From Snowella sp. SOY_38_metabat_116 (GTDB lineage: Bacteria; Cyanobacteriota; Cyanobacteriia; Cyanobacteriales; Microcystaceae): a DNA stretch of 63,590 bases. The DNA lies in the NCBI GenBank assembly GCA_031396835.1, contig JANNLO010000100.1, forward strand, positions 1 to 63,590, read 5' to 3'. Below are positions 28,537 to 63,590 of the stretch, piece by piece. Under the pieces are notes generated by a model. The model worked only from the letters and a program-made list of their open reading frames with translations. It was not told the DNA's origin and did not search any database. Position 1 is the first letter of the stretch. The number at the start of each line of letters is the position of its first letter. A program made the translations under genes and the position numbers.

Positions 28537-30657
28537 ATGCCAGATTCAACTAAAACGCTTTGTCCTTATTGTGGTGTGGGGTGTGGGTTAGAGGTTTCCC
28601 CAACGGTTAATCAATCTTGGAAGGTGACGGGCGATCGCGTTCATCCGTCTAGTTTGGGCATGGTGTGCGTCAAGGGTGCGACGGTGGTTGAATCTTTAGA
28701 AAAAGATCGTTTGCGCTATCCCTTATTTCGGAAAAAATTATCAGATCCCTTTGAACAAATTAGTTGGGAAGAAGCTCTTACAAAAATTGTAGAACGTATT
28801 CAAACAGTTCAACAAAACCAAGGAGTTGATGCTATTTGTATGTATGGGTCAGGGCAACTGCAAACAGAAGATTATTATATTGCTCAAAAATTACTTAAAG
28901 GTTGTTTAGGAACTAATAATTTTGATACTAATTCCCGATTATGTATGTCTTCGGCTGTTGCAGCTTATTTTCGGAATTTTGGTTCCGATGGCCCGCCTTG
29001 TTGTTATGAAGATTTAGATCTAACTGACTGCGCTTTTTTGATTGGAACCAATACAGCCGAATGTCATCCTATTGTTTTCAATCGTTTACAAAAACATCTT
29101 AAAAGTGACCCAAATAGTAAATTAATTGTCGTTGATCCCCGTCGAACTAAGACAGCAGAAGTTGCAGATTTACATCTCGCGATCGCGCCAGGAACTGATA
29201 TTGATTTGCTTAATGGTTTAGCTCATTTATTATTAAGTTGGGGAAAATTAGATCAGGATTTTATTGAAAAACATACCCAAAATTTTACTAAATACAAAGA
29301 AGTTATTGCCTATTATTCTCCCGAAGTTGTCACCTCAAAATGTGGCATTTCTCTGGAAGATTTGGAAACCGCTGCGAGATATTGGGCAGAATCGAACCGA
29401 ACTCTTTCGCTCTGGTCGATGGGCTTAAATCAGTCTTCGGAAGGAACTGCCAAAATTTGTTCTTTAATTAATTTGCATCTGATGACAGGACAAATTGGTA
29501 AACCAGGCATGGGCCCATTTTCCCTGACAGGTCAACCGAATGCGATGGGCGGGCGAGAAGCAGGAGGACTTTGTAATTTATTACCAGGTTATCGGCAAAT
29601 CAATAATCCTCAACATCGCGCTGAAATAGAACAAGCTTGGGGCGTGCCATCGGGTCGTATTAATCCTGTTGCGGGAAAAGATGCCTGGAGTATGATTATC
29701 GGTTTGGAACAAGAAGAGGTGGGCTTATTTTGGATTGCTGCCACCAATCCCGCCGTTAGTCTACCTGATTTGGAACGGGTGAAAAAAGCTTTAGCAAAAT
29801 CGCCCTTCACAATTTATCAAGATGCCTATTATCCCACGGAAACTAGCGCATTTGCCCATTTACTCTTGCCCGCAGCCCAGTGGAGTGAAAAAACGGGAAC
29901 AATGACTAATTCAGAAAGACGAGTCACTCTTTGTTCTCAGTTTCGCGATCGCCCAGGAGAAGCTAGAGCCGATTGGGAAATTTTTGCAGAAGTCGGTCGT
30001 CGTTTAGGTTTTAGTGATCAATTTCTGTTTAAGAATGCCGCCGAAGTTCATCAAGAATTTGTTAAGTTAACCCGCGATCGCGTTTGTGAAATGACAGGAA
30101 TTAGTCATGCTCGTTTATTAAAAGAAGGCCCGTTGCAATGGCCGAGTCCTGAAAATTTACCCGATGCAAAATCAGCAGATAATTCATCAAAACGACTTTA
30201 TACTGACCTAAAATTTCCAAATCCCGACGGACGCGCCAAATTTGTTCCTTTTCACACAAAAGGACTTGCCGAACCACCCGATGCTGATTATCCTTTTATT
30301 TTGACAACAGGAAGACTTTACGGACACTGGCACACCCAAACTCGCACGGGACGTATTGAAAAAATTGTCAAAATGCACCCCCAACCTTTTATTGAAATTC
30401 ATCCTAAAGATGCGGATTTTCTGCAAGTTATGGATGGGGAAAGTTTAGAAGTGCGATCGCGGAGAGGAACAGCCCGTTTTCCTGTGAAAATAACCACAGC
30501 CATTAAACACGGAACCGTTTTTGTACCCATGCATTGGGGATCGCTCTGGGCCGATAATGCCGAAGCCAATGCTCTTACCCATTCCCATGCTTGTCCTATT
30601 TCCCTTGAACCTGAATTAAAAGCTTGTGCGGTTCAATTAATCCGTGATCGCGCTTAA
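28537..30657 (+). CDS. narB: assimilatory (ferredoxin-dependent) nitrate reductase, molybdopterin oxidoreductase
   Basis: N-terminal [10 protein letters not shown] 4Fe-4S motif. MopB-type catalytic and C-terminal beta-barrel regions. 706 aa, the length and pattern of cyanobacterial NarB. Confidence 0.85.
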
Positions 30658-30683
30658 CCCTAATCGGTTCTATTTTGTATGTA

Positions 30684-31136
30684 TTAACCAGCAGCGAAAG
30701 CCGAACCTTCTAATGCAAAACCAGCATTATTCAAAACGGAACTGGTTTCAGAAGGGCCAGTAAATAAATATGTTCCTGGCGTACTCTTATTTTGGAATCG
30801 AGCAAAGTCAGTGGTTCCCACTCCGACTCCTGCTGAATAGGCATAAAAAGCTAATCCTTCTTCCTTAAAGTTTTTAAAGTTTGCACGAATAGAGGTCGCT
30901 TCTTGTTCTCCAGCAAACAAATACGTTCCTTCTCGGCCTTTAGCCGTATTCTTAAAACGATAGAACGGTTGCATTAATGGATCATCTTTGCTAACTGCAA
31001 CTTGAAAAGCAATTCCCTCCTCTTTGAAGCCTTTGTAACTTTTGCGAATAGAGGCGGCTTCTTGTTCTCCTACAAATAAATAGGTTCCAGATTTATCCAT
31101 ATTTTGGAAGCGAATAATAGGAGTCGTTAATTTATC
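30684..31136 (-). repeat. copy 1 of duplicated 3' gene module (about 450 nt, encodes the 150-aa triple repeat)
   Basis: Aligns by eye with 32017..32472 at roughly 85 percent nt identity. A 68-nt stretch at 30826..30893 is identical to 32162..32229. Confidence 0.85.
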
Positions 31137-31934
31137 TCTTAAGTGTAAATAAGATGTTTTGATGTCGTAGCCTATATCTCCTAAAATAGCAATATCTAAT
31201 GGACTTGGTAACTGACGAGTTCCAGTTAACACTGGATCCATTAAATCTTCAGCTGAACCAGATAAAGTAAATCCTTCTTTGATATGTTTTAGATCAGATT
31301 CCAAAGGAATAGGTTGGCTTTTATTAAGGCTTCGACTAATGGGCCCATTAAATCCTTGGTCTGTTATTTGGCGTTCAAAAACTGGAGCTTTTCCTATTCC
31401 TATTACGTGGCCTATTTCATGAAGAGCGATTGACAAAAAGTCGTATTGATCATTAGGAACATCATAACTCGTCTGCGGGGTTGTATCAAAGAAGAATTTT
31501 TCTCCTGATTGCCATTGACTTAGTTCTCCAGAATTGAACGCGATGGTACCCACCCAAGGTTGAAACTTATCGCCATTGTAACGATTACTTTCATCTGTCG
31601 ATTGCTCGAATGATTCCCCAAATCCTAAAATATTGCTATAAGTCCACCAAGGAATATCAATACTATAAGCAAAAATCAATAGGTCATCAATAGGTTGGCT
31701 CAGGGTAACGGTTTTTAGGGGGCGTCCAAAAGAAGGAAATCCAGTTACCCCTAAGTCACCGTAAGAATCCGCGATTGGAACGCTAACAGTTGTCCCTATA
31801 GGTTTTGGTGCAAAGTCATCATTTAGATAGGATTCCCAGATTTTTGCGGCTTGTTCTAAGATATTTTTTCTGAGCGGATCACTAAAAAATCCTTGAGTAT
31901 CAAAGCGGTAGTCAAATTGAATATTAAAAGTCAT
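30684..31934 (-). CDS. putative zinc metalloprotease-like protein (HExxH) with three C-terminal DUF5648-like repeats
   Basis: LHEIGHVIGIG at nt 31407..31421 region (HExxH, but no third His of the metzincin HExxHxxGxxH). The C-terminal 150 aa hold three RF(Q/K)N..GTYLF.G..E...FKEEG.AF repeats. No Sec-type leader. Confidence 0.6.
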   Translation of the reverse strand: MTFNIQFDYRFDTQGFFSDPLRKNILEQAAKIWESYLNDDFAPKPIGTTVSVPIADSYGDLGVTGFPSFGRPLKTVTLSQPIDDLLIFAYSIDIPWWTYSNILGFGESFEQSTDESNRYNGDKFQPWVGTIAFNSGELSQWQSGEKFFFDTTPQTSYDVPNDQYDFLSIALHEIGHVIGIGKAPVFERQITDQGFNGPISRSLNKSQPIPLESDLKHIKEGFTLSGSAEDLMDPVLTGTRQLPSPLDIAILGDIGYDIKTSYLHLRDKLTTPIIRFQNMDKSGTYLFVGEQEAASIRKSYKGFKEEGIAFQVAVSKDDPLMQPFYRFKNTAKGREGTYLFAGEQEATSIRANFKNFKEEGLAFYAYSAGVGVGTTDFARFQNKSTPGTYLFTGPSETSSVLNNAGFALEGSAFAAG

Positions 31935-32016
31935 CGATTGATTTTTTTAAAACAAAGAGTGGAAATAGTGTCAAACCTAACTCAAAACTTGATCAACACC
32001 ATTTCTATTTTAGCGT

Positions 32017-32472
32017 TTAACCAGCCGCAGCAAAAGCAGAACCTTCTAACGTAAAACCAGGGTTATTCGTTACCGAACTAGTCTCAGAAGGGCCAGTAAA
32101 TAGATAAGTTCCTGGCAAACCCTTATTTTGGAATCGAGCAAAGTTAGTGGTTCCTCCTCCTACTCCTGCTGAATAGGCATAAAAAGCTAATCCTTCTTCC
32201 TTAAAGTTTTTAAAGTTTGCACGAATAGAAGTAGCTTCTCCTTCTCCTGCAAATAAATAAGTTCCTTCTCGACCTTGTGCGGTATTCTGAAAACGATAGA
32301 AGGGAGTCATCAAAGGATCGTTTTTACTGGCCGCAACTTGGAACGCGAGTCCCTCTTCTTTAAAGTTTTTAAAGTTTGCACGAATAGAGGTAGCTTCTCC
32401 TTCTCCTGCAAATAAATAAGTTCCAGGCTTATCCGTATTTTGGAAGCGAATAATAGGAGTTGTTAGCTTATC
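32017..32472 (-). repeat. copy 2 of duplicated 3' gene module
   Basis: See copy 1. Protein segments DKLTTPIIRFQN...LEGSAFAA(A)G are collinear in both genes. Confidence 0.85.
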
Positions 32473-34152
32473 TTTTAGACTTGAACCAGTTGAATCGTCA
32501 TTGGTAATTGTGCCAACTCCTTGGGCATCGCCAATGGTGGCACCGCCTGTGGGATTGGTCAGATTGACGAAGAAGGTTTCATTGGGTTCGACCTTGGTAT
32601 CTCCGATAATAGGAACCGCGATCTGCTTGGTAGTCTCTCCTGGAGCGAAGGTTAGAGTCCCAGTGGTAGCTGTATAATCTGAATCCGCCGTAGTCGCCGT
32701 TTGATCGGCAGTGGCGAAGTTAACGTTAACGGCAGATGCACTAGCAGTCGATAGGGTGACAGTAAAGTTCAAATTAGTCGTACCACTGTTGCCTTCATTG
32801 ATAGCTACGTCGTTTATGCTGAGCGTCGGTAAGACAGTTGCTGCAACTTTAAAAAGCTCAGCCCCATTTGTCCCATCATCGGCATTAAACAGGAGAGTAC
32901 CATTAAGATTGGTCAGATAAAAAGGGTTCGAACCAGTCGCTCCCGGTCTCAAATTGGTAGTGAGAACAGTACCAGAGGTAGTTCCATCACTCTGCCAAAG
33001 CTCAGTCCCATTTGTCCCATCATCGGCACTAAAGTAGAGAGTACCATTGATATTGGTCAGATCAAAAGGAGTCGAACCAGTCGCTCCCGGATTAATATCT
33101 TTGACTAGGACAGTACCTGCAATCGTTCCGTCACTTTTCCAAAGCTCAGTCCCATTCGTTCCATCATTAGCAGTAAAGTAGAGAGTCCCATTGACATTGG
33201 TCAGATTAGAAGGAGCCGAGTTACCCCCTGCTGGATTAATATTTTTGACCATGACAGTACCTGCAACCGTTCCGTCACTCTTCCAAAGTTCCTGACCGTT
33301 GGTTCCATCATCGGCATTAAAATAGAGAGTCCCATTGACATTGGTTAGATAAGCAGGATTTGAATTTCCTGCTGCTGGATTAATATTGCGGACTAAGACA
33401 GTACCCGCACTCGTCCCGTCACTTTTCCAAAGCTCAGTCCCATTTGTCCCATCATTAGCACTAAAATAGAAAGTCCCATTGATATTGGTTAGAAAACTAG
33501 GATTCGAAGATCCTGCTCCGGCATTGATATCTTTAACTTGGAAAGTCCCAGCAGAAGTCCCGTTACTTGTCCAAAGCTCAGTTCCACTAGCACCATCAGT
33601 GGCACTAAAGTAGAGAGTCCCATTGACATTGATTAGCTCGGAAGGAGATGAGCTACCCGCTCCGATATTAATGTCTCGGATCAGGACGGTTCCACTAGCA
33701 GTTCCGTCACTTTTCCAAAGCTCATCCCCATTTGTTCCATCATTAGCCGAGAAGTAGAGAGTGCCATTGACATTGGTCAGATAAAAAGGAGTCGAACTAC
33801 CTCCTGCTGGATTGATATTGCTGACTAGAGAAGTCCCAGCAGCCGTTCCGTCTGTTTTCCAAAGCTCATCCCCATTTGTTCCATCATTAGCTGAGAAGTA
33901 GAGAGTGCCATTGACATTGGTCTCGTTATCAGGAGACGAACTAGCTCCTGCTGGATTGATATTGCTGACTAGAGAAGTCCCAGCAGCCGTTCCGTCCGTT
34001 TTCCAAAGCTCAACCCCATTTGTTCCATCATTAGCCGAGAAGTAGAGAAAATTGCCGACAATGCCTCGCCCTTCAGGAGGGAAATAGGGAAGAGATGGAA
34101 ATGAACCACTCAATCCTGGGAAAATATCTTTAACCAATACAGGAATCGCCAT
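32017..34152 (-). CDS. ELWxxDGT-repeat protein with Calx-beta domain and three C-terminal DUF5648-like repeats
   Basis: Nine 48-aa repeats (NGTLYFSANDGTNG.ELWKSDGT.AGT). Calx-beta-like segment (DSDYTATTGTLTFAPGETTKQIAVPIIGDTKVEPNETFFVNL). Same C-terminal module as the downstream gene. No Sec-type leader. Confidence 0.75.
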   Translation of the reverse strand: MAIPVLVKDIFPGLSGSFPSLPYFPPEGRGIVGNFLYFSANDGTNGVELWKTDGTAAGTSLVSNINPAGASSSPDNETNVNGTLYFSANDGTNGDELWKTDGTAAGTSLVSNINPAGGSSTPFYLTNVNGTLYFSANDGTNGDELWKSDGTASGTVLIRDINIGAGSSSPSELINVNGTLYFSATDGASGTELWTSNGTSAGTFQVKDINAGAGSSNPSFLTNINGTFYFSANDGTNGTELWKSDGTSAGTVLVRNINPAAGNSNPAYLTNVNGTLYFNADDGTNGQELWKSDGTVAGTVMVKNINPAGGNSAPSNLTNVNGTLYFTANDGTNGTELWKSDGTIAGTVLVKDINPGATGSTPFDLTNINGTLYFSADDGTNGTELWQSDGTTSGTVLTTNLRPGATGSNPFYLTNLNGTLLFNADDGTNGAELFKVAATVLPTLSINDVAINEGNSGTTNLNFTVTLSTASASAVNVNFATADQTATTADSDYTATTGTLTFAPGETTKQIAVPIIGDTKVEPNETFFVNLTNPTGGATIGDAQGVGTITNDDSTGSSLKDKLTTPIIRFQNTDKPGTYLFAGEGEATSIRANFKNFKEEGLAFQVAASKNDPLMTPFYRFQNTAQGREGTYLFAGEGEATSIRANFKNFKEEGLAFYAYSAGVGGGTTNFARFQNKGLPGTYLFTGPSETSSVTNNPGFTLEGSAFAAAG
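32845..34056 (-). repeat. intragenic tandem repeat, 9 x 144 bp (ELWxxDGT units)
   Basis: The Trp of ELW recurs every 48 aa (W50, W98, W146 ... F434). The two N-terminal units are near-identical at DNA level (for example CCTGCTGGATTGATATTGCTGACTAGAGAAGTCCCAGCAGCCGTTCCGTC at 33803 and 33947). Confidence 0.85.
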
Positions 34153-34806
34153 CAGATTTTACCTCGCATTTTTTTAATTACACTATTTTTTAACTATTTG
34201 AACAAGCTAACGTAATGCAATGTTTAACTAATCATTTAGCTTTTGATTTATGAAGCTTTCAAAAATCAGTAACTATCCTGAAAGCTCTATTCCATAAGTA
34301 TAGAAAATATCCCATAAAGCAAACATCTCTCTATGGAAAGAAGCCATTTGGGATCTTTTTCGGAACGGTTACGGTGAAGGGATTGTGATAAAATCGATAA
34401 TTTGGTGAAACCCCCGTCTGTTAAGGTTTACAGGATAGATACCAAATAGGCTCTATAGGCATAGACGTAAAATACATGGATACATTAACAACTCAAGAAA
34501 AAAATTACAAAACATCTAAATATTATTTAACATCTAGAATTCTTTAGATATTTTTAATAGCCTAACTTTAGTCAAAGTTTCCGAAATATAAATGCCTTAG
34601 TTACAAGGCTTGCTGTTTTGTCTGCTCAAAGAGTATACTGGGCCAGCAATTCTCATTTTAAAACATTTGTACTATAAAAAGTTGTCAGATTTACCAATAC
34701 AGTTAAACAGGTCAACGATAGAATAAGGGTTTGAGGTATTGCAAGGCGATAGATTTATGAGAATTGCTGATACTAGACCTGTTGGGAAATAAAAGAGAAA
34801 ATCGCC

Positions 34807-34879
34807 GAAACCCTTGCCAGCACTGGATCTCAAGGATCTTGAGCAGGAAACACTGAAATGCTTACTGGATAAGGGTTTC
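34807..34879. other. 73-nt imperfect palindrome / nested hairpin in non-coding spacer
   Basis: GAAACCCTTGCCAG (34807..) pairs with CTGGATAAGGGTTTC (..34879). Inner perfect hairpin CTCAAG-GAT-CTTGAG at 34829..34843. A related AAGGGTTTGAGG lies at about 34724. Confidence 0.4.
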
Positions 34880-35070
34880 AAGGATGTTTTGGCTTATTAC
34901 CCAACAAATCTACTGTCTCAAGTTAGTTCAGTCGCAGCATTGAAAAGTTGATTGTTTTGTAGCTTAAAAGCATAGTCCCTATCGAGCAAGCATCTAAAAA
35001 ATAGAAATGTATTCTTATTTTTCAATAAGTGTGGTATGAAAATTTATTTCATTAGAGAGATTCACTAACG

Positions 35071-37443
35071 ATGTCTAAGAAAATAGCATTTTTCACTATC
35101 TGCTCAAATAATTATTTGCCCTATGCCCAGATTCTTTTCAACTCACTCAAAAAAATTCATCCTGAATCTAGTTTATTTCTTTGTTTAGCCGATATCAAAA
35201 CCCAAGGAAGCGACATCGACGGCGTATCTATCATCGAAGCCAGAGAGTTGAATGTTCCTAATTTTAGTGATTTTGCATTCCGATATGATGTAATGGAATT
35301 TAATACCGCTCTCAAACCCTTCATGATGAGCTGGTTGATTGAAAAATATGATTATGAGCAAGTCGTCTATCTCGATCCCGATATAGAAGTTTTTTCACCC
35401 CTCCAGTCAGTTTTTGATGCTCTAAACTCAGGTAAAAATTTTGTTATTACTCCCCATTTGACAGCTCCCGCCGAAACATCTGCCTATCCCAGTGACGTAG
35501 ATATCATGAAAGCAGGCATCTATAATTTAGGTTTTATTGCGGTCAGTAATCATCCCGATGTCTATTATTTTTTGCATTGGTGGGCGCGTCGGCTGAGATT
35601 TCAGTGTATTAATCAACAAGACCAAGGAATTTTTGTAGATCAAAAATTTGTCGATTTACTTCCTGCTTTTTTCGATAATGTTGCGATCCTCCGAGACACC
35701 ACGTTAAATGTTGCCTATTGGAATTTAGAGCAAAGAGAATTAACCTACGATAAAGACGAAAATATTTGGCTAGTAGATAATAGACCACTCACTTTTTTCC
35801 ATTTTAGCGGTATTAGTCCTAAAAATAGGCATAGATTATCAAAACATACCTCTCGATTTAATGAAAATCTAAACCCAGCTTTACAGGCAATTATTGACCA
35901 TTATATTGATCAATACGAGGCAAATATCGATGCTAACCTTTTAATCAAAGAATATAGTTATAATCACTTCGATAACGGCTTATTTATTTCTGATTTAATG
36001 AGACGTTATTATAGAGAATTGGATAATATTTGGTTAGAAGATCCCTTTAAAACGTTTTATCAGTATTTAAACGAAACTAATCTTACTATTCTAAAACTGT
36101 CTTCATGCAGTATTACTAATTTAATGTATGCTCTTTGGTCTAAAGATGAAGGATTAAGAAATTCATTTAAGCTAAATAGTTATGAAGATGTTCAATCCTA
36201 TTGCCGATGGTTTATTCAATATTCGTTCCATTATAAAATTGATGAATATTTTGTTCAACCAGTCTTAGATCGCGTTACTAAAAATCTTAATCCTGCTTCT
36301 ATTAAGAATCTTTCACACTTAAATAAAAACACTAAAAATCTTATTGGTGTTATCGGTTATTTAAAAACTGAAACAGGCGTTGGTCAAGCGGGTCGGTTGG
36401 TTGCTCAAAGTCTTGAAAGATCAGGGTTTTCTCTTCAAGGATTAGACGTTTCGATTAATGTACATTCGCGACAAAATGATAATAGAATTGAGCATTTATT
36501 AAAACCTAAAATTGACTCTCCGATACATATTTATAAGGTGAATGCTGACCAATTATCTATTGTCAAAAATCATATTGCTTCCCAGATCAATCGTGCAGAT
36601 TATCAAATTAGTATGCCCGCATGGGAACTGAGTATTTTTCCTTCGGATTGGATTAACAACCTTTCTGAAATTAATGAAGTCTGGGTAGAATCTGAATTTG
36701 TTAGGGCATCTTTACAAGCAAAATTGAGTATCCCAATTTATTGTATGCCTCCTGCTATTACGATTGATAACTTTATTGTTCAGGATCGACAATACTTTAA
36801 TTTACCTGAAAATACGTTTCTATTTCATTTTAATTTTGACTTTGCATCTTATTCAAGCCGAAAAAATCCTGAAGCGGTCATTTCTGCTTACAGAAAAGCT
36901 TTTCGGAAAAAATGTTTAAGTATTCCTACCACTTTGGTTATTAAAGTCAGAGGTTACGATCCCGACAATAAACAATTACAAATGTTAATGGATGCTACTG
37001 ATAACGAACAAGATATTATTGTAATTAATAAACAACTTAACCATTCTGATAGCTTGGCATTAATGAATTGTTGCGATTGTTATGTCTCGCTACATCGTTC
37101 AGAGGGTTTTGGTTATACATTGGCAGAGTCAATGCTTTTAGGTAAACCTGTAATTGCCACTAATTTTTCAGGAAGTAAAGATTTTGTTAAGAAATCAACG
37201 GGTTTTCCGATATCCTATCAACTAATCCCTCTTAATGAGGGAAACTATCCATTTTACGAAAATCAATTGTGGGCCGATTCTGATCTTGATCATGCCGCCT
37301 GGACAATGAGAAAAATTGTGTTAGATGATGAAAATACCAAAAAAATTGCCCATAATGGTCAACAGTATATTAAAAGTTTTCATTCTCTTGATGCGGCTGG
37401 AAAGCGTTATCTAAATCGGCTAAATGAACTGGGTATTTTTTGA
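35071..37443 (+). CDS. two-domain glycosyltransferase (N-terminal GT-A/DxD domain + C-terminal GT4-like GT-B domain)
   Basis: N-terminal IAFFTICSNNYLPYA...VVYLDPDIEVF (DxD). C-terminal HRSEGFGYTLAESMLLGKPVIATNFSG (EX7E-type GT4 motif). 790 aa. Confidence 0.75.
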   Translation: MSKKIAFFTICSNNYLPYAQILFNSLKKIHPESSLFLCLADIKTQGSDIDGVSIIEARELNVPNFSDFAFRYDVMEFNTALKPFMMSWLIEKYDYEQVVYLDPDIEVFSPLQSVFDALNSGKNFVITPHLTAPAETSAYPSDVDIMKAGIYNLGFIAVSNHPDVYYFLHWWARRLRFQCINQQDQGIFVDQKFVDLLPAFFDNVAILRDTTLNVAYWNLEQRELTYDKDENIWLVDNRPLTFFHFSGISPKNRHRLSKHTSRFNENLNPALQAIIDHYIDQYEANIDANLLIKEYSYNHFDNGLFISDLMRRYYRELDNIWLEDPFKTFYQYLNETNLTILKLSSCSITNLMYALWSKDEGLRNSFKLNSYEDVQSYCRWFIQYSFHYKIDEYFVQPVLDRVTKNLNPASIKNLSHLNKNTKNLIGVIGYLKTETGVGQAGRLVAQSLERSGFSLQGLDVSINVHSRQNDNRIEHLLKPKIDSPIHIYKVNADQLSIVKNHIASQINRADYQISMPAWELSIFPSDWINNLSEINEVWVESEFVRASLQAKLSIPIYCMPPAITIDNFIVQDRQYFNLPENTFLFHFNFDFASYSSRKNPEAVISAYRKAFRKKCLSIPTTLVIKVRGYDPDNKQLQMLMDATDNEQDIIVINKQLNHSDSLALMNCCDCYVSLHRSEGFGYTLAESMLLGKPVIATNFSGSKDFVKKSTGFPISYQLIPLNEGNYPFYENQLWADSDLDHAAWTMRKIVLDDENTKKIAHNGQQYIKSFHSLDAAGKRYLNRLNELGIF

Positions 37444-37471
37444 TTTTTAATTTCATACGACTTATTTTTTT

Positions 37472-38557
37472 ATGTTTATTTCCTACTCTCAAAACTTTGA
37501 AGATGTTATTCTTAACCGAATTTTTCAGGATAAAAAAAATGGTTTTTACATTGATGTAGGAGCTAATCATCCCATTTATGATTCGGTCACAATGGCGTTT
37601 TATGAAAGAGGTTGGCAAGGAATAAATATTGAACCAATGCCCAGTCAGTTTGAATTATTTGTTAAGGATCGTCCGCGTGATATTAACCTCAATCTTGCGA
37701 TCAGTGATCAAGAAAAAGAGGTAGATTTTTTTGATCTTAAAGGAACAGGATTTTCAACCCTTGATAAAGAAATTGCAATGTCATTAGTTGAAGAAAAAAA
37801 ATTAGAGTTGGATGTTTATAAAGTTGAGACACGTTCATTATTATCGGTCTGTCTGGAGTTTGTTAATATTCAAATTGACTTTTTGAAAATTGATGTTGAA
37901 GGTTGGGAAGAATATGTAATCAATAGTAATAATTGGCAACGTTTTCGCCCTACGATTGTGATTGTTGAAGCAACTTTTCCTGGGAAGCCAAAATATAAAC
38001 AAACAAATATTCCTAAAGTTTTAGAGTCTCATAATTATAGGAAAGTGTATTTTGATGGTTTAAATGACTTTTATTTAGCGGAAGAATCAAATGAATTAAT
38101 TGAGCATTTTGGTATCCCTCCCAATGTTTTTGACAATTTTCAGTCATATAAGTACTGCGACATGAAAAAGCACGCTGATAATTTAGTGCAGGTTGTCCGC
38201 GATCGCGAGATAGAAATAGGTAATCATATTTCCGAAAATCTTACATTAAAACAAAAAAATACAATTTTGGACAATCTTTTATTAGATGAGAAATTTGAAA
38301 CTAATCGATTAATGAAGGAAATTAAAAATATTAGTTTAAAAAGTAAACAAGACCTATTAGAGACTCATATATTTGTAGAAAAAATTACCTCAGAACTCTC
38401 TTCTTCAAAAACACAATTATGCTCAGAATTTTTATCTTCACAGAATAAAATAAATGATTTGCTCGAACAAATAGCTGCCATAAAAACTAGTAAATTTTGG
38501 AAATTAAGAACACTTTGGTTCAAAATTAAAAGATTAATTGGACTTCCCTCTGACTGA
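37472..38557 (+). CDS. FkbM-family methyltransferase with C-terminal coiled coil and amphipathic tail
   Basis: YIDVGANHP and FLKIDVEGWE FkbM motifs. The last ~125 aa are heptad-rich and end in KTSKFWKLRTLWFKIKRLIGL (38483..38545). Confidence 0.75.
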   Translation: MFISYSQNFEDVILNRIFQDKKNGFYIDVGANHPIYDSVTMAFYERGWQGINIEPMPSQFELFVKDRPRDINLNLAISDQEKEVDFFDLKGTGFSTLDKEIAMSLVEEKKLELDVYKVETRSLLSVCLEFVNIQIDFLKIDVEGWEEYVINSNNWQRFRPTIVIVEATFPGKPKYKQTNIPKVLESHNYRKVYFDGLNDFYLAEESNELIEHFGIPPNVFDNFQSYKYCDMKKHADNLVQVVRDREIEIGNHISENLTLKQKNTILDNLLLDEKFETNRLMKEIKNISLKSKQDLLETHIFVEKITSELSSSKTQLCSEFLSSQNKINDLLEQIAAIKTSKFWKLRTLWFKIKRLIGLPSD

Positions 38558-38587
38558 TTATCATGAATTTTGACACGAATTTAAACT

Positions 38588-39925
38588 ATGGAAAAATCTT
38601 TGACTTTAGTTATTGACGGAGTATTTTTTCAGATTAACCAGACAGGTATTGCTCGTGTTTGGTCAATGCTGCTTAAATACTGGCAAAAATCAGGTTTTAT
38701 AACACAGATTATTCTGATTGATCGCGCAGAAACCGCACCAAAATTAGAAGGAATTAACTATTATTCAATGTCCGCTTATGACTATCGTGAAAGAGCCTTA
38801 GACTCAGAGCGATTACAGTTCGTTTGTGATAAGTTTCAAGCAGATTTATTTATTTCAACTTATTATACCACTCCTTTAACAACTCCCTCTATTTTGATGA
38901 TTCATGATATGATTCCAGAAGTTTTTGGATTCGATTTAAGTGAGCTTTGTTGGCAAGAAAAGTATTATTCTATTTTATATGCAACGCGATATATAACTGT
39001 TTCTCAAAATACTAATCGTGATTTATTAAAATTTTATCCTCATATTAATAAATCCCTTGTTAGCCTTGTCTATAATGGCGTTGATAAACTATTTGAACCA
39101 GCTTCTCATCAAGAAATTCTTCAAGTTAAAGAAAAAATAGGCATTGGTTTACCCTACTTTCTGATAGTTGGTTCTCGCATGAGTCTGCAAGGATATAAAA
39201 ATGCAATTGTGTTTTTTAAAGCGTTAAGTCAGTGGCAACAAAAACGAGAATTTGAAATTGTTTGTGTGGGCGGCGAGACTGAATTAGAAATTGATTTATT
39301 TGCTCTTACTAAAGACCTAAAAATTCATCTTCTTCAAGTTAATGATTTAGAATTAAAGGCGATTTATTCGGGTGCGATCGCGCTAGTTTATCCATCTTTG
39401 TATGAGGGATTTGGTTTACCGATTGTTGAAGCGATGGCCTGTGGTTGTCCAGTTATTACTTGTCGCAATTCTTCTCTTTCTGAAGTGGCAGGAGATGCAG
39501 CTATTTATGTTGATGAATATGATGTACTAGAGATGATCCAATCTCTTGAAAAAGTCCAAGTTGCCGAAGTTCGTCAAAAACTTATTCAAGCAGGTTTAAA
39601 GCAAGCTAAGAAATTTTCTTGGGACAAAATGGCGGAAGACATCGCTAATATTTGCTTAAAAACAGTTCAAGAAGTGAAATCTAAACAATTAGAAATATCT
39701 CAATTTTCTTTACTTTGGCAAGATTTTAGACAAGAACAAATTAAATTAGAAAACTCAAGAAAAGTTCAAGCTGATCAACAATCATCTCATTTAGAAGAAA
39801 TTACAAAACTTCAAAGATATTTAGAATTAGCTACAGCAGAAATTGAAGCAATGAAAACTAGCAAGTTTTGGAAAATACGATCATTATGGTTCGCAATTAA
39901 GAAGCAATTGGGATTTTCAAGCTGA
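38588..39925 (+). CDS. GT4-family glycosyltransferase with C-terminal coiled coil and amphipathic tail
   Basis: YPSLYEGFGLPIVEAMACGCPVI motif. C-terminal heptad region ends in KTSKFWKIRSLWFAIKKQLGF (39854..39916). Confidence 0.8.
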   Translation: MEKSLTLVIDGVFFQINQTGIARVWSMLLKYWQKSGFITQIILIDRAETAPKLEGINYYSMSAYDYRERALDSERLQFVCDKFQADLFISTYYTTPLTTPSILMIHDMIPEVFGFDLSELCWQEKYYSILYATRYITVSQNTNRDLLKFYPHINKSLVSLVYNGVDKLFEPASHQEILQVKEKIGIGLPYFLIVGSRMSLQGYKNAIVFFKALSQWQQKREFEIVCVGGETELEIDLFALTKDLKIHLLQVNDLELKAIYSGAIALVYPSLYEGFGLPIVEAMACGCPVITCRNSSLSEVAGDAAIYVDEYDVLEMIQSLEKVQVAEVRQKLIQAGLKQAKKFSWDKMAEDIANICLKTVQEVKSKQLEISQFSLLWQDFRQEQIKLENSRKVQADQQSSHLEEITKLQRYLELATAEIEAMKTSKFWKIRSLWFAIKKQLGFSS

Positions 39926-57381: not shown

Positions 57382-60300
57382 ATGCCACGCCGCACAGACT
57401 TAAAGAAAATTTTAGTATTAGGAGCAGGCCCCATTGTTATCGGCCAAGCTTGTGAATTTGACTACTCTGGAACCCAAGCCTGCAAAGCCTTACGGGAAGA
57501 GGGTTATGAGGTTGTGTTAGTGAACTCTAATCCTGCTTCGATTATGACGGATCCAGAAACCGCTCACCGCACCTATATCGAACCTCTTCTCCCCGACATG
57601 GTAGAAAAAGTTATCGAAAAGGAACGCCCCGATGCTTTGTTACCCACAATGGGCGGACAAACGGCTCTTAATCTGGCAGTGACCTTGGCTAAATCGGGTG
57701 TCCTAGAAAAATACGGCGTTGAGTTGATCGGGGCAAAACTAGAAGCGATCGAAATGGGAGAAGACCGAGAACTTTTCAAAGAAGCGATGGCCCGAATTGG
57801 GGTTCCCGTTTGCCCTTCAGGAGTTGTCAATGATATTGAATCTGCTCGGCGAGTAGCCAAGGAAATCGGCTCCTATCCCCTGATTATTCGTCCAGCTTTT
57901 ACTCTTGCGGGAACGGGCGGAGGGATTGCCTATAACCAGGAAGAATACGAAGAAATGGCTGAATACGGACTAGAACAATCGCCTGTTTCCCAAATTCTAG
58001 TGGAAAAATCTCTCCTGGGCTGGAAAGAATACGAATTAGAGGTGATGCGAGATTTGGCGGATAATGTGGTAATTGTCTGTTCGATTGAAAATTTTGATCC
58101 GATGGGGGTACATACGGGAGATTCGATCACCGTCGCACCCGCCCAAACTTTGACGGATAAGGAATATCAACGGTTGCGCGATTATTCGATCGCAATTATC
58201 CGAGAAATTGGAGTAGAAACGGGCGGATCGAATATTCAGTTTTCGGTCAATCCTGCCAATGGGGATGTGATTGTTATTGAAATGAATCCCCGTGTTTCCC
58301 GTTCTTCGGCCTTGGCTTCTAAGGCAACAGGCTTCCCGATCGCGAAATTTGCGGCGAAATTAGCGGTAGGTTATACGCTCAACGAAATTTCCAACGATAT
58401 TACCAAAAAAACGCCTGCATCCTTTGAGCCGACCATTGATTATGTGGTGACGAAAATTCCCCGTTTTGCCTTTGAAAAGTTTCCTGGCTCGGAACCGATT
58501 TTAACCACTCAAATGAAGTCCGTCGGGGAAGCGATGGCCATTGGTCGTACTTTCCAAGAATCTTTCCAAAAAGCCTTACGTTCCCTAGAAACAGGTCGTT
58601 TTGGTTTTGGTTGCGATCGCGTGGAAACTCTGCCGACCCTTTCCCAGGTGCGTTCCCAGTTGCGAACACCCAATCCTGATCGGGTTTACTCGATTTATCA
58701 CGCCTTCAGTCTGGGCATGACCGTCGAAGAAATCCATGAATTAACCGCGATCGACATCTGGTTTTTGGATAAATTAGCCGATCTAGTCGAAACCGAAAAA
58801 ATTCTCAAAAAAACGCCCCTCAAATCGATTACGGCGGCAAAAATGCGATCGGTTAAACAACAGGGATTCAGCGATCGCCAAATTGCCTTTGCGACCAAAT
58901 CGACTGAAGACGAGGTGCGAACCTACCGTAAAAGTTTAGATATTATTCCTGTTTATAAAATGGTGGATACTTGCGCGGCAGAATTTGAAGCCCTTACGCC
59001 CTATTATTATTCCACCTACGAACCCTCGGATTCAGAGGTTTTACCCTGTGATAAGGAAAAAGTCATGATTTTAGGCGGTGGCCCGAACCGTATTGGTCAG
59101 GGCATCGAATTTGACTATTGTTGTTGTCATGCCGCCTTCTCTCTCAGTGATGCGGGCTATGAAACCATCATGGTCAATTCCAACCCCGAAACCGTTTCTA
59201 CTGACTATGACACCAGCGATCGCCTTTATTTTGAACCGCTTACTAAGGAAGATGTGTTAAATATCATCGAAGCAGAGCAACCTGCGGGGATTATCGTGCA
59301 GTTTGGTGGTCAAACCCCGTTAAAACTAGCAATTCCGTTGCAAAAATACCTGAATAGCCCTGATTGTCCCGTCCAAACTAAAATCTGGGGAACTTCACCC
59401 GATTCCATTGATGCCGCCGAAGATCGGGAAAAGTTCGAGAAAATTCTTCGTGAATTGGATATTAAGCAACCTGCTAACGGGATTGCCCGTAATTACGAAG
59501 AATCTCGCGTGGTCGCTAATCGTATTGGGTATCCCGTTGTGGTGCGTCCTTCCTACGTTTTGGGCGGTCGAGCGATGGAAATCGTCTTTGGAGATGAAGA
59601 ATTAGAACGCTACATGGTTTATGCGGTGCAGATCGAACCCGATCACCCCATTTTGATCGATAAATTTCTCGAAAACGCGATCGAGGTTGACGTGGATTCC
59701 CTGACTGATTCGACGGGTTTTGTCGTCATGGGGGGCATCATGGAACATATCGAAGAAGCAGGGATTCATTCAGGGGATTCTGCCTGTTCACTGCCTTATA
59801 CGAGCTTAACGGATGAAGTAGTGACTACCATTCGCCAATGGACGGAGCAGTTAGCCAAGTCTTTAAAAGTCATTGGTTTGATGAATATTCAGTACGCGGT
59901 GCAAGGCGATCAGGTTTATATCCTAGAAGCCAATCCCCGTGCATCTCGGACGGTTCCCTTTGTTTCTAAGGCAACGGGGCGGCCTTTAGCGAAAATTGCC
60001 TCTTTGGTGATGTCGGGTAAAACCTTGACGGAACTGGGCATTACGGAAGAATTAATTCCCAATCATATTGCGGTTAAAGAAGCGGTTCTACCCTTTGCGA
60101 AATTTCCTGGTACTGATACCTTGCTTGGCCCTGAGATGCGTTCTACGGGTGAGGTAATGGGGATTGATGACAGTTTCGGAAAAGCGTTTGCTAAGGCGGA
60201 ATTAGGAGCCAGCGTTAATCTATCGACGACGGGAACGGTGTTTGTTTCCATGAGCGATCGCACTAAAGAAGCAACTGTCCCTGTGGTTCGGGATTTACTT

Positions 60301-60624
60301 GCTTTAGGCTTTAAAGTGGTGGCGACATCGGGAACTCAACAAGTGTTGAAAGAGAACGGCATCGAAGGGATTGAAGTTGTTCTCAAACTCCATGAAGGTC
60401 GTCCCCATGTGATTGATTGGATTAAGAATAATCAGATCCAATTTATTATTAATACGCCTAGCGGTGAGGAGTCCCAGGTTGACGGGCGATCGATTCGTCG
60501 GGCGGCTTTGGATTATAAGTTACCGATTATCACGACCTTAGCAGGGGCGCGGGCAACTGTCGCGGCGATTCGGAGTTTGCAGGATCATCCTTTGGAGGTT
60601 AAGGCTTTACAGGATTATTTTTAG
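57382..60624 (+). CDS. carB: carbamoyl-phosphate synthase large subunit
   Basis: Two ATP-grasp halves plus an MGS-like C-terminus, about 1080 aa. The canonical N-terminus [30 protein letters not shown] starts at 57382. Confidence 0.92.
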
Positions 60625-60786
60625 TTAGTTCTGTTAACAAATGTGCGAGATGGGTTGAAATATTTGAATTTCGCCTGTCTCGCAAGATGGTTTATAAGGT
60701 AGAGTAAGAATTATGGCCAACAGGAGGTTAATAACGTTTAACTTAAAACTTTGTTATGTTCCAACTAGTGTCTGAATGTAAAGCTT

Positions 60787-61977
60787 ATGAATACGACGTT
60801 TATCTCTGACGAAAATCAAGTCATCGGCATTGAAGAAGATGAGGATGGGATTGAGAAGGAAATTGAAGATGACAATAAGGAAAATGATGAACCTCCTTTT
60901 GAACCTACAAAAATTAGAATTCAGACGAAAATTTTAACGATTAATTCAATTTTATTTAGAATAAAAGAAGGAGCATTAAATTTAGAGTCAGATTTTCAGC
61001 GTCCTCCTTTAATTTGGAGTAAAGTGGCTCAGAGCAGATTGATTGAATCAATTTTAGTTCGTATTCCCTTACCCTCATTTTATGTTGATGCTTCTGATGA
61101 GGAGGAATGGTTGATCGTCGATGGATTACAACGTTTAAGTACGCTAAAGGCTTTTGTATTGGATGAAAGTTTCAAGTTAACAGGTCTGGAATATTTACAG
61201 GAATTTAATAATAAAAATTTTGATGAGCTTCCTCGCAATTACCAACGTAGAATTGGAGAAACAGAAATTATTATTCATTCACTTGAGCAACATACTCCTG
61301 AAAATGTCAAGTTTCATATATTTAAGCGAATTAATACAGGAGGGTTGCCACTTTCTTCACAAGAAATTCGTCATGTTATTTATCAAGGTAAAGCAACTCA
61401 ATTATTAAGAAAACTATCAATTTCCACAGACTTTCAAGAAATAATTGGAATTGGCAAAAATAATAGGCTTGCAACTAGAATGGGTGATAAAGAATTTATT
61501 CTTCGTTTTTTAGCGTTTTATATTACTCCATATACAGAATATAAGAAAAATTCATTGGAGGATTTTTTGAATAACACAATGGATATTCTGAATAAGTCTT
61601 CTGAGGAAATTCTTAAAATCTATGAACAAAATTTTTATTTTTCCATAGAATTAGCCAAAAAAATATTTGGAGAATTTGCTTTTCGTAAACTGATTAAAGA
61701 TCAAAAACGCAAATACCCACCAAACAAAGCTCTCTTTGAGGTTTGGTTAGTTAATTTGGCTAAGTTAGATGATAATAATCGAAGAAAATTAGAATCTAAC
61801 AAGCAAAATGTCTATGATAAATTTCTTGATTTAATTAATTATTCAGGAAGCAATTTAGAAATGCAGGAAAAATGTACAAAATTCAATAAGTCTATCACCT
61901 ATGGAACAAGTCAGGTTCAACAAGTCCGTTTTCGTTTTCAATGTATTGAAGGATTAATACAAGAGATTATTGAATGA
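60787..61977 (+). CDS. DUF262-domain (ParB/Srx-fold) protein
   Basis: DFQRPP...LIESILVRIPLPSFYV...VDGLQRLSTL motifs after an acidic N-terminal tail. The stop overlaps the next start (ATGA). Confidence 0.7.
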   Translation: MNTTFISDENQVIGIEEDEDGIEKEIEDDNKENDEPPFEPTKIRIQTKILTINSILFRIKEGALNLESDFQRPPLIWSKVAQSRLIESILVRIPLPSFYVDASDEEEWLIVDGLQRLSTLKAFVLDESFKLTGLEYLQEFNNKNFDELPRNYQRRIGETEIIIHSLEQHTPENVKFHIFKRINTGGLPLSSQEIRHVIYQGKATQLLRKLSISTDFQEIIGIGKNNRLATRMGDKEFILRFLAFYITPYTEYKKNSLEDFLNNTMDILNKSSEEILKIYEQNFYFSIELAKKIFGEFAFRKLIKDQKRKYPPNKALFEVWLVNLAKLDDNNRRKLESNKQNVYDKFLDLINYSGSNLEMQEKCTKFNKSITYGTSQVQQVRFRFQCIEGLIQEIIE

Positions 61978-63077
61978 TTACTAAGTTATTACTAAAAAAT
62001 TTTAAACCTTTTTCTGAACAATCCCTTGAACTCAGAAATTTAACAGTTTTGTCAGGTTTAAATAGCACGGGGAAATCATCCGTTCTTCAGTCATTGTTGC
62101 TACTTCGACAATCTTTTGAACAAAAATTATTAAATGAAGTAGGATTAGCATTAAATGGCGACTTAGTTTCTATCGGGACAGGAAAAGACGCTTTATATGA
62201 ATCAGCACCAGAAGATATACTAAAACTGAAAATTTCTGATAGTAACAATATAACAGCAGAATGGTGTTTTAATTATAATCGTAATTCCGATGTAATGGAG
62301 TTAGATCGAGAGTTGACTAATGTTGACCCTGCAATTTATCAATCTAGCCTTTTTCTCGACAACTTTCATTATATTCAGGCGGAACGATTAGGGCCAAGAA
62401 GATACTTTGAAATGTCAGATTTTCAAGTAAGACAACATCGACAAATAGGAAGTAAAGGTGAATATGCAGCTTATTTTATAGATATTTATCAACACGAAAA
62501 AATTATCAATCCTGAGCTTGGTCATCCATTTGCTAATTCTTTAACTTTGAAAGATCAGGTAGAAGCGTGGATGAGTGAAATAAGTCCAGGAACAAAGCTA
62601 AATATTACAGCAAATTCAGCTATGGATGTTGTTAGTTTGCAGTACTCTTATGGATTGAGTAATGACTATCGTTCAACTAATGTTGGTTTTGGAATAACCT
62701 ATATATTACCAATATTGGTCGCTATTCTTTCAGCACAACTGGACACCTTGATTTTATTAGAAAATCCCGAAGCTCATCTTCATCCCAAAGGACAATCTAA
62801 GATGGGAAGATTGTTAGCACTTGCTGCGAATTGTGGCATACAAATTATTGTTGAAACTCATAGTGATCACCTTCTTAATGGTATTCGTGTTGCAGTTCGT
62901 GAAAAGTTAGCTAAAGCTGATGATGTTCAACTTTATTATTTTAAGCGATATTTTGAAGATGAAAAAAATATCATTACCGAAGTTGTATCTCCTCGCTTAT
63001 ATCAGGATGGAGGTATTGACCTCTGGCCAGAGGGATTTTTTGATCAATCAGAACACGATTTAATGGATTTATTATAA
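61974..63077 (+). CDS. DUF3696-type ABC/OLD-like ATPase
   Basis: Walker A GLNSTGKSS, LLENPEAHLHP, ETHSDH, and C-terminal WPEGFFDQ. Confidence 0.7.
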   Translation: MITKLLLKNFKPFSEQSLELRNLTVLSGLNSTGKSSVLQSLLLLRQSFEQKLLNEVGLALNGDLVSIGTGKDALYESAPEDILKLKISDSNNITAEWCFNYNRNSDVMELDRELTNVDPAIYQSSLFLDNFHYIQAERLGPRRYFEMSDFQVRQHRQIGSKGEYAAYFIDIYQHEKIINPELGHPFANSLTLKDQVEAWMSEISPGTKLNITANSAMDVVSLQYSYGLSNDYRSTNVGFGITYILPILVAILSAQLDTLILLENPEAHLHPKGQSKMGRLLALAANCGIQIIVETHSDHLLNGIRVAVREKLAKADDVQLYYFKRYFEDEKNIITEVVSPRLYQDGGIDLWPEGFFDQSEHDLMDLL

Positions 63078-63078
63078 A

Positions 63079-63590
63079 ATGTACTTTTTCATTAATGAAC
63101 TCTCATTTATTGGACAGGCTAAAGATGTTTACGAAGCTAAACAATTTATCACCGAATTGTATTCAGTCATTAAAGAAATTGAACCTCTTCAAATTCAAAA
63201 GGATAAGCCAGTTCAAACTCATAGTAATATAGCAAACGAAAAAATTTGCTCTAATTTAACACTTAATCAATGGTTAAATAAAAATTTAAACTCAACAGAT
63301 AGGCATGGTCGGACAGTTGCTAGTTTCTTCTTAAACATCATTAGCAAAGGCCCCTTTATTGATCAGCAAGGAATTCTCAATTCTTGTCAATGCTATTTTG
63401 AAGATCAAGATGTTCACCTCAATTCTTTGTCAGGAGCAGCATATTATCGAGGTATTCTTATTAGCTTACAAAATTCATCATGTTTTTCTGATGATACTGT
63501 TAAAGTTAAATTTGGTTATGAGCAACAAGAACTTCAAAATATAGACATTACTAATCTAACCAAAATCAGTCAAGTCAAAGGAATACGCCG
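63079..63590 (+). CDS. hypothetical protein, third gene of the DUF262/DUF3696 operon (3' end beyond window)
   Basis: The ATG lies 1 nt after the preceding stop. My manual translation stays open for 170 codons to the window edge (MYFFINELSFIGQAKDVYEAKQFITELYSVIKEIEP...). It is not in the supplied ORF track because it has no stop. Confidence 0.6.
   Translation, partial: MYFFINELSFIGQAKDVYEAKQFITELYSVIKEIEPLQIQKDKPVQTHSNIANEKICSNLTLNQWLNKNLNSTDRHGRTVASFFLNIISKGPFIDQQGILNSCQCYFEDQDVHLNSLSGAAYYRGILISLQNSSCFSDDTVKVKFGYEQQELQNIDITNLTKISQVKGIR

Follow-up and report, generated by a model that had tools for sequence, protein, structure and literature searches.

A probable Type I Menshen operon, nsnA-nsnB-nsnC, downstream of carB in a Snowella contig

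Menshen and its nearest relatives

Menshen is a three-gene anti-phage system, nsnA-nsnB-nsnC. Its first validation came in Solibacillus silvestris StLB046, and the catalogue of Li et al. 2025 (PMC12065111) lists 1,997 systems, 8.16% of them cyanobacterial. Beyond a defence phenotype, the Menshen literature offers only models based on prediction, and phage protection has been demonstrated for the S. silvestris system alone, as cited in PMC12065111. Here we describe three genes that follow carB at the end of contig JANNLO010000100.1 of the cyanobacterium Snowella sp. SOY_38_metabat_116, the whole 63,590-nucleotide stretch being referred to as the window. Our conclusion is that these genes are, with high probability, a Type I Menshen anti-phage operon, nsnA-nsnB-nsnC, carried as a small laterally moving cassette.

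In Type I Menshen the genes stand in the order A-B-C. NsnA joins a DUF262 domain to a helical C-terminal region, with no additional sensor domain at its N-terminus. NsnB is an ABC ATPase that ends in a DUF3696 tail and in which EN replaces DE and GxG replaces SGG, and NsnC is a two-domain protein encoded directly downstream of nsnB. The locus described here is the same in all these respects as far as the window extends, and differs in its NsnA motif I (QRxxxxW rather than QRxxxW), in an acidic NsnA tail of ~60 residues, and in belonging to a mainly cyanobacterial NsnC subfamily, PDLC03898.

Family membership was assigned by Pfam and PADLOC profile searches of the three products, with NCBIfam also tried for NsnC. 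The product of gene 1 matches PF03235 (GmrSD_N/DUF262) at 7e-21 over residues 66-197, and the PADLOC model for NsnA at 4.2e-126 (419 bits), with residues 17-395 aligned to positions 19-383 of 385. For gene 2, Pfam reports AAA_15 (1.1e-24), AAA_21 (3e-19) and PF12476/DUF3696 (1.2e-13, residues 315-366), while PADLOC reports NsnB at 1.5e-122, residues 1-367 covering positions 1-343 of 345. The visible part of gene 3 matches the NsnC model PDLC03898 at 1e-50 (residues 1-169 on positions 1-177 of 263) and eight further NsnC models, and its PADLOC matches are to NsnC models only. A preliminary description of this DNA, made from the sequence alone, had read gene 1 as a DUF262 protein and gene 2 as a DUF3696 ATPase and had pointed to the three-gene Menshen (NsnABC) system; the profile searches bear out both the domains and the system named. 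Its further suggestion, that the trio might represent a variant system or one with an architecture yet to be described, we reject, given that gene 3 falls within an NsnC subfamily for which a PADLOC model has been in place since 2023, and that its closest full-length relatives cover this model end to end (positions 1-262 of 263). As a defence system the locus is canonical and of a kind catalogued before, and no new variant. It adds one cyanobacterial case to that system, and in annotation the names nsnA, nsnB and nsnC are appropriate for genes 1-3.

The match of gene 1 to GmrSD_N, together with a weak PADLOC match to REase_II (2e-11), might instead point to modification-dependent restriction of the GmrSD/SspE type. 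On that reading the DUF262 protein would itself be the nuclease acting on modified DNA, and the ATPase next to it would be unrelated. GmrSD, SspE and DndB share with NsnA a DUF262 NTPase-like domain, a DGxQR motif and a helical DNA-binding region that follows them. However, GmrSD_N spans residues 66-197 only, and the Pfam search finds neither a fused DUF1524 nuclease (none at E <= 0.1) nor an HNH or other nuclease domain in NsnA. The NsnA model, matched over its full length, reaches 419 bits where REase_II reaches 42. Translational coupling links the three genes, which are also found together in other genomes, and there are no phosphorothioation genes nearby, with no dnd or ssp genes within 6 kb upstream. 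Menshen differs from these systems in that its effector is a protein of its own, to which the ATPase is the link. We consider restriction of the GmrSD/SspE type to be extremely unlikely here.

Much the same can be said of a second alternative, namely that the genes belong to some other defence system built on DUF262 proteins or ABC ATPases (PD-T4-2, HEC-03, PDC-M55, PARIS, Septu or Gabija) instead of Menshen. Secondary PADLOC matches to PD-T4-2_A (1.8e-40), HEC-03B (1.6e-37), PDC-M55A (2.7e-29) and AriA (8e-28) favour it, as does a sequence search in which PtuA and OLD ATPases are the solved structures closest to NsnB (E ~1e-5). In PARIS (AriA/AriB), Septu (PtuA/PtuB) and Gabija (GajA) an oligomer of an ABC/OLD-type ATPase likewise holds a toxin or nuclease and controls its activity, and their complexes resemble the predicted NsnB4-NsnC2 assembly. 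Yet the secondary matches are at least 80 orders of magnitude weaker than those to the Nsn models and mostly partial, as are the profile matches of NsnB to AriA, PtuA and GajA, which are far weaker than its match to the NsnB model. Pfam places no Toprim or HNH partner among the three products, the nsn locus has a separate DUF262 sensor and a two-domain NsnC effector, and the nine PADLOC models that gene 3 matches are all NsnC. That these genes belong to another of the listed systems is hardly credible, and we retain the Menshen assignment.

The features of the locus are as follows.

60787..61977, + strand: nsnA (gene 1), 396 residues; ParB-like DUF262 protein with a ~60-residue acidic N-terminal tail and a C-terminal helical region; predicted DNA sensor
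61974..63077, + strand: nsnB (gene 2), 367 residues; ABC-type (OLD/AAA_15-like) ATPase with a DUF3696 tail; predicted transducer holding NsnC
63079..63590, + strand: nsnC (gene 3), first 170 codons, N-terminal domain only; the window edge falls ~83 codons before the stop
60625..60786, + strand: spacer of 162 nucleotides from the carB stop to the nsnA start, GC content 0.346; presumed to hold the promoter and to form the cassette's left edge
57382-60624: carB

The ORF (open reading frame) list and the raw sequence agree that an ATGA at 61974-61977 both ends nsnA and starts nsnB. The TAA of nsnB ends at 63077, and the ATG at 63079, one nucleotide on, opens a stop-free frame of 170 codons that runs to the last base of the window; the 933 visible codons of the three genes are all open. 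Because the program that made the ORF list omits frames running off the end, the sole entry over the gene 3 region is an out-of-frame 61-residue ORF at 63359-63544. The preliminary description had given this same layout of three + strand genes packed head to tail, with the overlap, the frame at 63079 and the omission of gene 3 from the list, and had called the last gene truncated by the window. The truncation is confirmed by the full-length relatives of gene 3, which are ~253 residues long against the 170 codons seen here; judged from that length, the ~83 codons of nsnC that should lie beyond the window would make up the whole of its C-terminal effector domain.

Predicted sensor, transducer and effector

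The DUF262 domain of NsnA is described in PMC12065111 by the motifs QRxxxW, DGxQR and FxxxN. In the present protein we find DGLQR at residue 112 and FKRIN at 179, while motif I reads QRPPLIW, one residue longer than the published form. Every motif that the preliminary description had quoted for genes 1 and 2 is found in the translations (DFQRPP and VDGLQRLSTL in NsnA; GLNSTGKSS, ENPEAHLHP, ETHSDH and WPEGFFDQ in NsnB), and the acidic tail that it had noted ahead of the gene 1 motifs is seen in the first 60 residues, which hold 16 D/E against 7 K/R. Since NsnA has just this acidic stretch of ~60 residues before DUF262, and no extra N-terminal domain, its sequence assigns the locus to Type I as defined in PMC12065111. 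The C-terminal helical ParBDB region is supported, at the level of sequence, by the near-complete coverage of the NsnA profile.

NsnB carries a Walker A motif, GLNSTGKS, at residue 28 and a Walker B motif, LILLEN, at 259, in which EN replaces DE. It has GFG at 238 in place of SGG, and ETHS at 294 with the sensor histidine. These substitutions, and the sensor histidine, agree with the features that PMC12065111 reports for NsnB.

A homology search with the 170-residue fragment of NsnC returned 37 relatives; the five nearest share 71-82% identity with it and have lengths of 253-260 residues. The subfamily is mainly cyanobacterial, with relatives in Dolichospermum, Aphanizomenon, Anabaena and Sphaerospermopsis. 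AlphaFold2 models the window fragment as an alpha/beta fold with a mean predicted local distance difference test score (pLDDT) of 90.8, and the closest full-length relative (pLDDT 88.4) as an alpha/beta N-terminal domain, residues 1 to ~167, followed by a C-terminal domain of one helix and four strands. Foldseek found no significant whole-chain match for this relative in the PDB and nothing significant in a viral structure library. For its last ~60 residues, the best local matches are the CdiA-CT toxin 5t87 (probability 0.85-0.91, template modelling score 0.53-0.64) and HigB toxins, and K176, H177 and H231 are nearly invariant among NsnC relatives. A BECR RNase fold is reported for most NsnC effectors. 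These matches are suggestive, though not proof, of a BECR-RNase-like C-terminal domain.

What this analysis establishes is the family membership of the three genes, their order and translational coupling, the integrity of their nucleotide-binding motifs, and the co-occurrence of the trio elsewhere, along with a composition and surroundings indicative of mobility. As to how the system might work, we follow the published Menshen prediction, each step of which is carried over to the present locus by inference. NsnA would sense invading phage DNA by means of its DUF262 NTPase-like domain and helical DNA-binding domain, and would signal to, or stimulate, NsnB, whose ABC ATPase subunits are predicted to assemble as a GajA-like tetramer. 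As in Septu and PARIS, paired DUF3696 tails of NsnB would grip NsnC by its N-terminal domain, and the binding or hydrolysis of ATP by NsnB would then activate or release NsnC. The C-terminal toxin of NsnC, which lies beyond the window and looks BECR-RNase-like in the nearest relatives, would cut RNA and so stop phage growth. Its target may be phage RNA or, in the style of abortive infection, host RNA, possibly at a cost to the cell. The general questions about Menshen, namely the ligand of NsnA, the signal from NsnA to NsnB and the target of NsnC, are made no more tractable by this locus.

The cassette in other genomes

To ask whether gene 3 co-occurs with genes 1 and 2 elsewhere, a check that the preliminary description had proposed, we assembled 26 loci with an NsnC relative. 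Four of these are close copies, and the other 22 are metagenome loci at 33-50% identity, recovered by a second metagenome scan that used an alignment as the query; a first scan with the NsnC fragment gave no match. In 26 of 26 loci an nsnB relative ends 1-24 nucleotides upstream of the nsnC relative, and nsnA stands directly before nsnB in 14 of the 16 loci with enough upstream sequence. The two exceptions, L092 (3179-5895) and L105 (9242-10447), both metagenomic, have nsnB and nsnC relatives without a recognisable nsnA upstream; nsnB of L105 also appears fragmentary, and both may be Menshen loci that have decayed or been rearranged. Efforts to reach past the window end yielded little: an exact look-up of NsnB found just one 3-kb Logan contig, which ends short of the window end and did not give the 3' end of gene 3, and an exact look-up of CarB gave no match.

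The close copies lie in varied surroundings. In L002 the cassette has a low-molecular-weight phosphatase gene on one side and, right after nsnC, a DDE transposase gene on the other, while in L003-L005 it lies ahead of genes for a 180-residue membrane protein, ThiS and a DUF1517 protein, and the genes that follow nsnC in L003-L005 were found in no other locus, nor in the window. We also scanned with CarB, taking one genome per species, and obtained 80 carB loci, ~25 of them cyanobacterial, with a best CarB identity of 81%. None of the 80 carries nsnA, nsnB or nsnC after carB, so the trio is not universally syntenic with carB, a point on which the preliminary description had wanted a check. Among the closest genomes the genes after carB vary (an ABC substrate-binding protein, Ni-SOD and rpsD in L006; LemA in L008). 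Given this variation, and a closest CarB that is only 81% identical, no exact 'empty site' can be defined.

The strongest evidence for mobility is composition compared across hosts. In all copies the cassette has a GC content of 0.32-0.34 and contains no HIP1 site (GCGATCGC), while the host flanks of L002-L005 have a GC content of 0.48-0.50 and 0.9-1.7 HIP1 sites per kb, and the present window a GC content of 0.377. Lateral mobility of the nsnABC cassette, as judged from these sequences, appears well supported. Lateral acquisition had already been suggested in the preliminary description, from AT-richness and the lack of HIP1; it is borne out mainly by the comparison with relatives, and the HIP1 gap adds little.

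Identity between copies varies along the cassette. At the DNA level (window versus L002 and L003) it is 65-88% for nsnA, 89-97% for nsnB and 80-97% for nsnC, and at the protein level 69-75% for NsnA, 92-96% for NsnB and 75-82% for NsnC. This mosaic has a jump at the nsnA/nsnB junction, which suggests either recombination or a sensor gene under diversifying selection. A conserved transducer with polymorphic sensor and effector is the pattern reported for Menshen, and our copies fit it. The locus is also a clean example of a cassette that keeps its low GC content and its lack of HIP1 across differing hosts, with nsnB conserved and nsnA and nsnC varying.

Within the window itself, 60787-63590 has a GC content of 0.320, compared with 0.469 in carB and 0.377 overall, which places it ~2 standard deviations below windows of the same size. 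GC content at third codon positions is 0.21-0.22 in the nsn genes, 0.45 in carB and 0.286 (standard deviation 0.052) on average in the window, and several other genes are as low as the nsn genes. Thus the preliminary statement that the tract is visibly more AT-rich than carB is correct in its numbers, but carB is itself the window's compositional outlier on the high side, such that contrasts with it overstate the AT-richness of its neighbours. HIP1 occurs at 81 sites in the window, where 0.34 would be expected by chance. The last lies at 60254-60261, and the 10 kb before the tail hold 17, or about one per 0.6 kb; these counts agree with the preliminary description, which had found none from 60262 on. 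It is important to note that the 3.3-kb HIP1-free tail is only the second-largest such gap in the window, and that at the window-wide rate ~1.2 gaps of its size would be expected among 82. The tail gap is therefore not significant alone, and we reject it as stand-alone evidence of foreign origin.

There are several points that weigh against the conclusion that this is a Type I Menshen operon on a mobile cassette. The effector half of NsnC and the genes downstream of it lie beyond the window, such that an intact system is unconfirmable from the window. NsnC matches no Pfam or NCBIfam family in scans of the fragment and its relatives, its N-terminal fragment finds no significant neighbour and no PIN-like match by Foldseek against the PDB although an inactive PIN-like fold is ascribed to this domain in Menshen, and the BECR likeness of the relatives' C-terminal domain falls below significance by E-value (0.16-0.47). 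Sequence search finds no solved structure for NsnA or NsnB, and the published mechanism is itself derived from structure prediction alone. Finally, the compositional case for foreign origin that can be made within the window is modest, with GC content low by ~2 standard deviations and a HIP1 gap that is not significant.

A third alternative is that the locus is a decayed or partial Menshen remnant which no longer defends, with nsnC, for instance, truncated or followed by an insertion past the window edge. The end of the window inside nsnC, the transposase gene right after nsnC in L002, and the more distant loci L092 and L105 with their nsnB-nsnC pairs, lend this some plausibility. On the other hand, the 933 visible codons are open with catalytic and nucleotide-binding motifs intact, and the 92-96% protein identity of NsnB to copies in other hosts is as would be seen under purifying selection. 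We judge decay to be very unlikely, and hold to our reading of the locus as a Menshen operon.

The carB flank and other features of the window

In L003 and L004 the cassette likewise lies directly after the 3' end of carB (region 60519-60790 of the window), with flanks of ~48% GC versus ~38% in the window. There are two possible explanations for this adjacency in two hosts. The first is that a bare nsnABC cassette, with no visible integrase, lands or exchanges preferentially at the carB 3' flank, with carB acting as a recombination anchor or hotspot, while the second is shared ancestry or chance. Between the window and L003/L004 the cassettes are ~85% identical in DNA, and the comparable carB 3' stretch (81 nucleotides) is ~79% identical; on the L004 contig, similarity to carB is lost ~100 nucleotides further upstream, after which the contig ends. 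The third close copy, L002, lies elsewhere, beside the DDE transposase gene. We regard the hotspot as unlikely, and shared ancestry or chance as the likelier explanation.

The last codons of carB in L003 (23-153), and the matching part of L004, contain a 131-nucleotide insertion flanked by GGAGGTGA/GAAGGTGA. Its excision restores a perfect CarB C-terminus, and the insertion resembles a small mobile element of the non-autonomous kind.

A consensus scan gave no promoter-like site in the spacer 60625..60786, and across the whole region such sites are no more numerous than in shuffled sequence; the same is true of terminator-like sites. The region's only terminator-like site, where shuffled sequence averages 1.6, is a hairpin, CCTCTGGCCAGAGG, followed by a T-run, at 63020-63033, within the 3' end of nsnB and just ahead of nsnC. 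It is probably a chance occurrence. No tRNA, Rfam match or meaningful repeat was found as a boundary signal near the cassette, and nucleotide similarity to the related cassettes starts only at ~60823, within nsnA.

The largest HIP1 gap in the window, 7.7 kb at 30453-38199, contains two large minus-strand ORFs, 30684-31934 and 32017-34152, that are rich in repeats; both end in a common C-terminal module and the repeated units read 'GTNGxELWKSDGT'. It also takes in ORFs at 35071-39925 that are low in GC content (0.31-0.34) and resemble, by eye, glycosyltransferases or methyltransferases; they may be a second laterally acquired tract.

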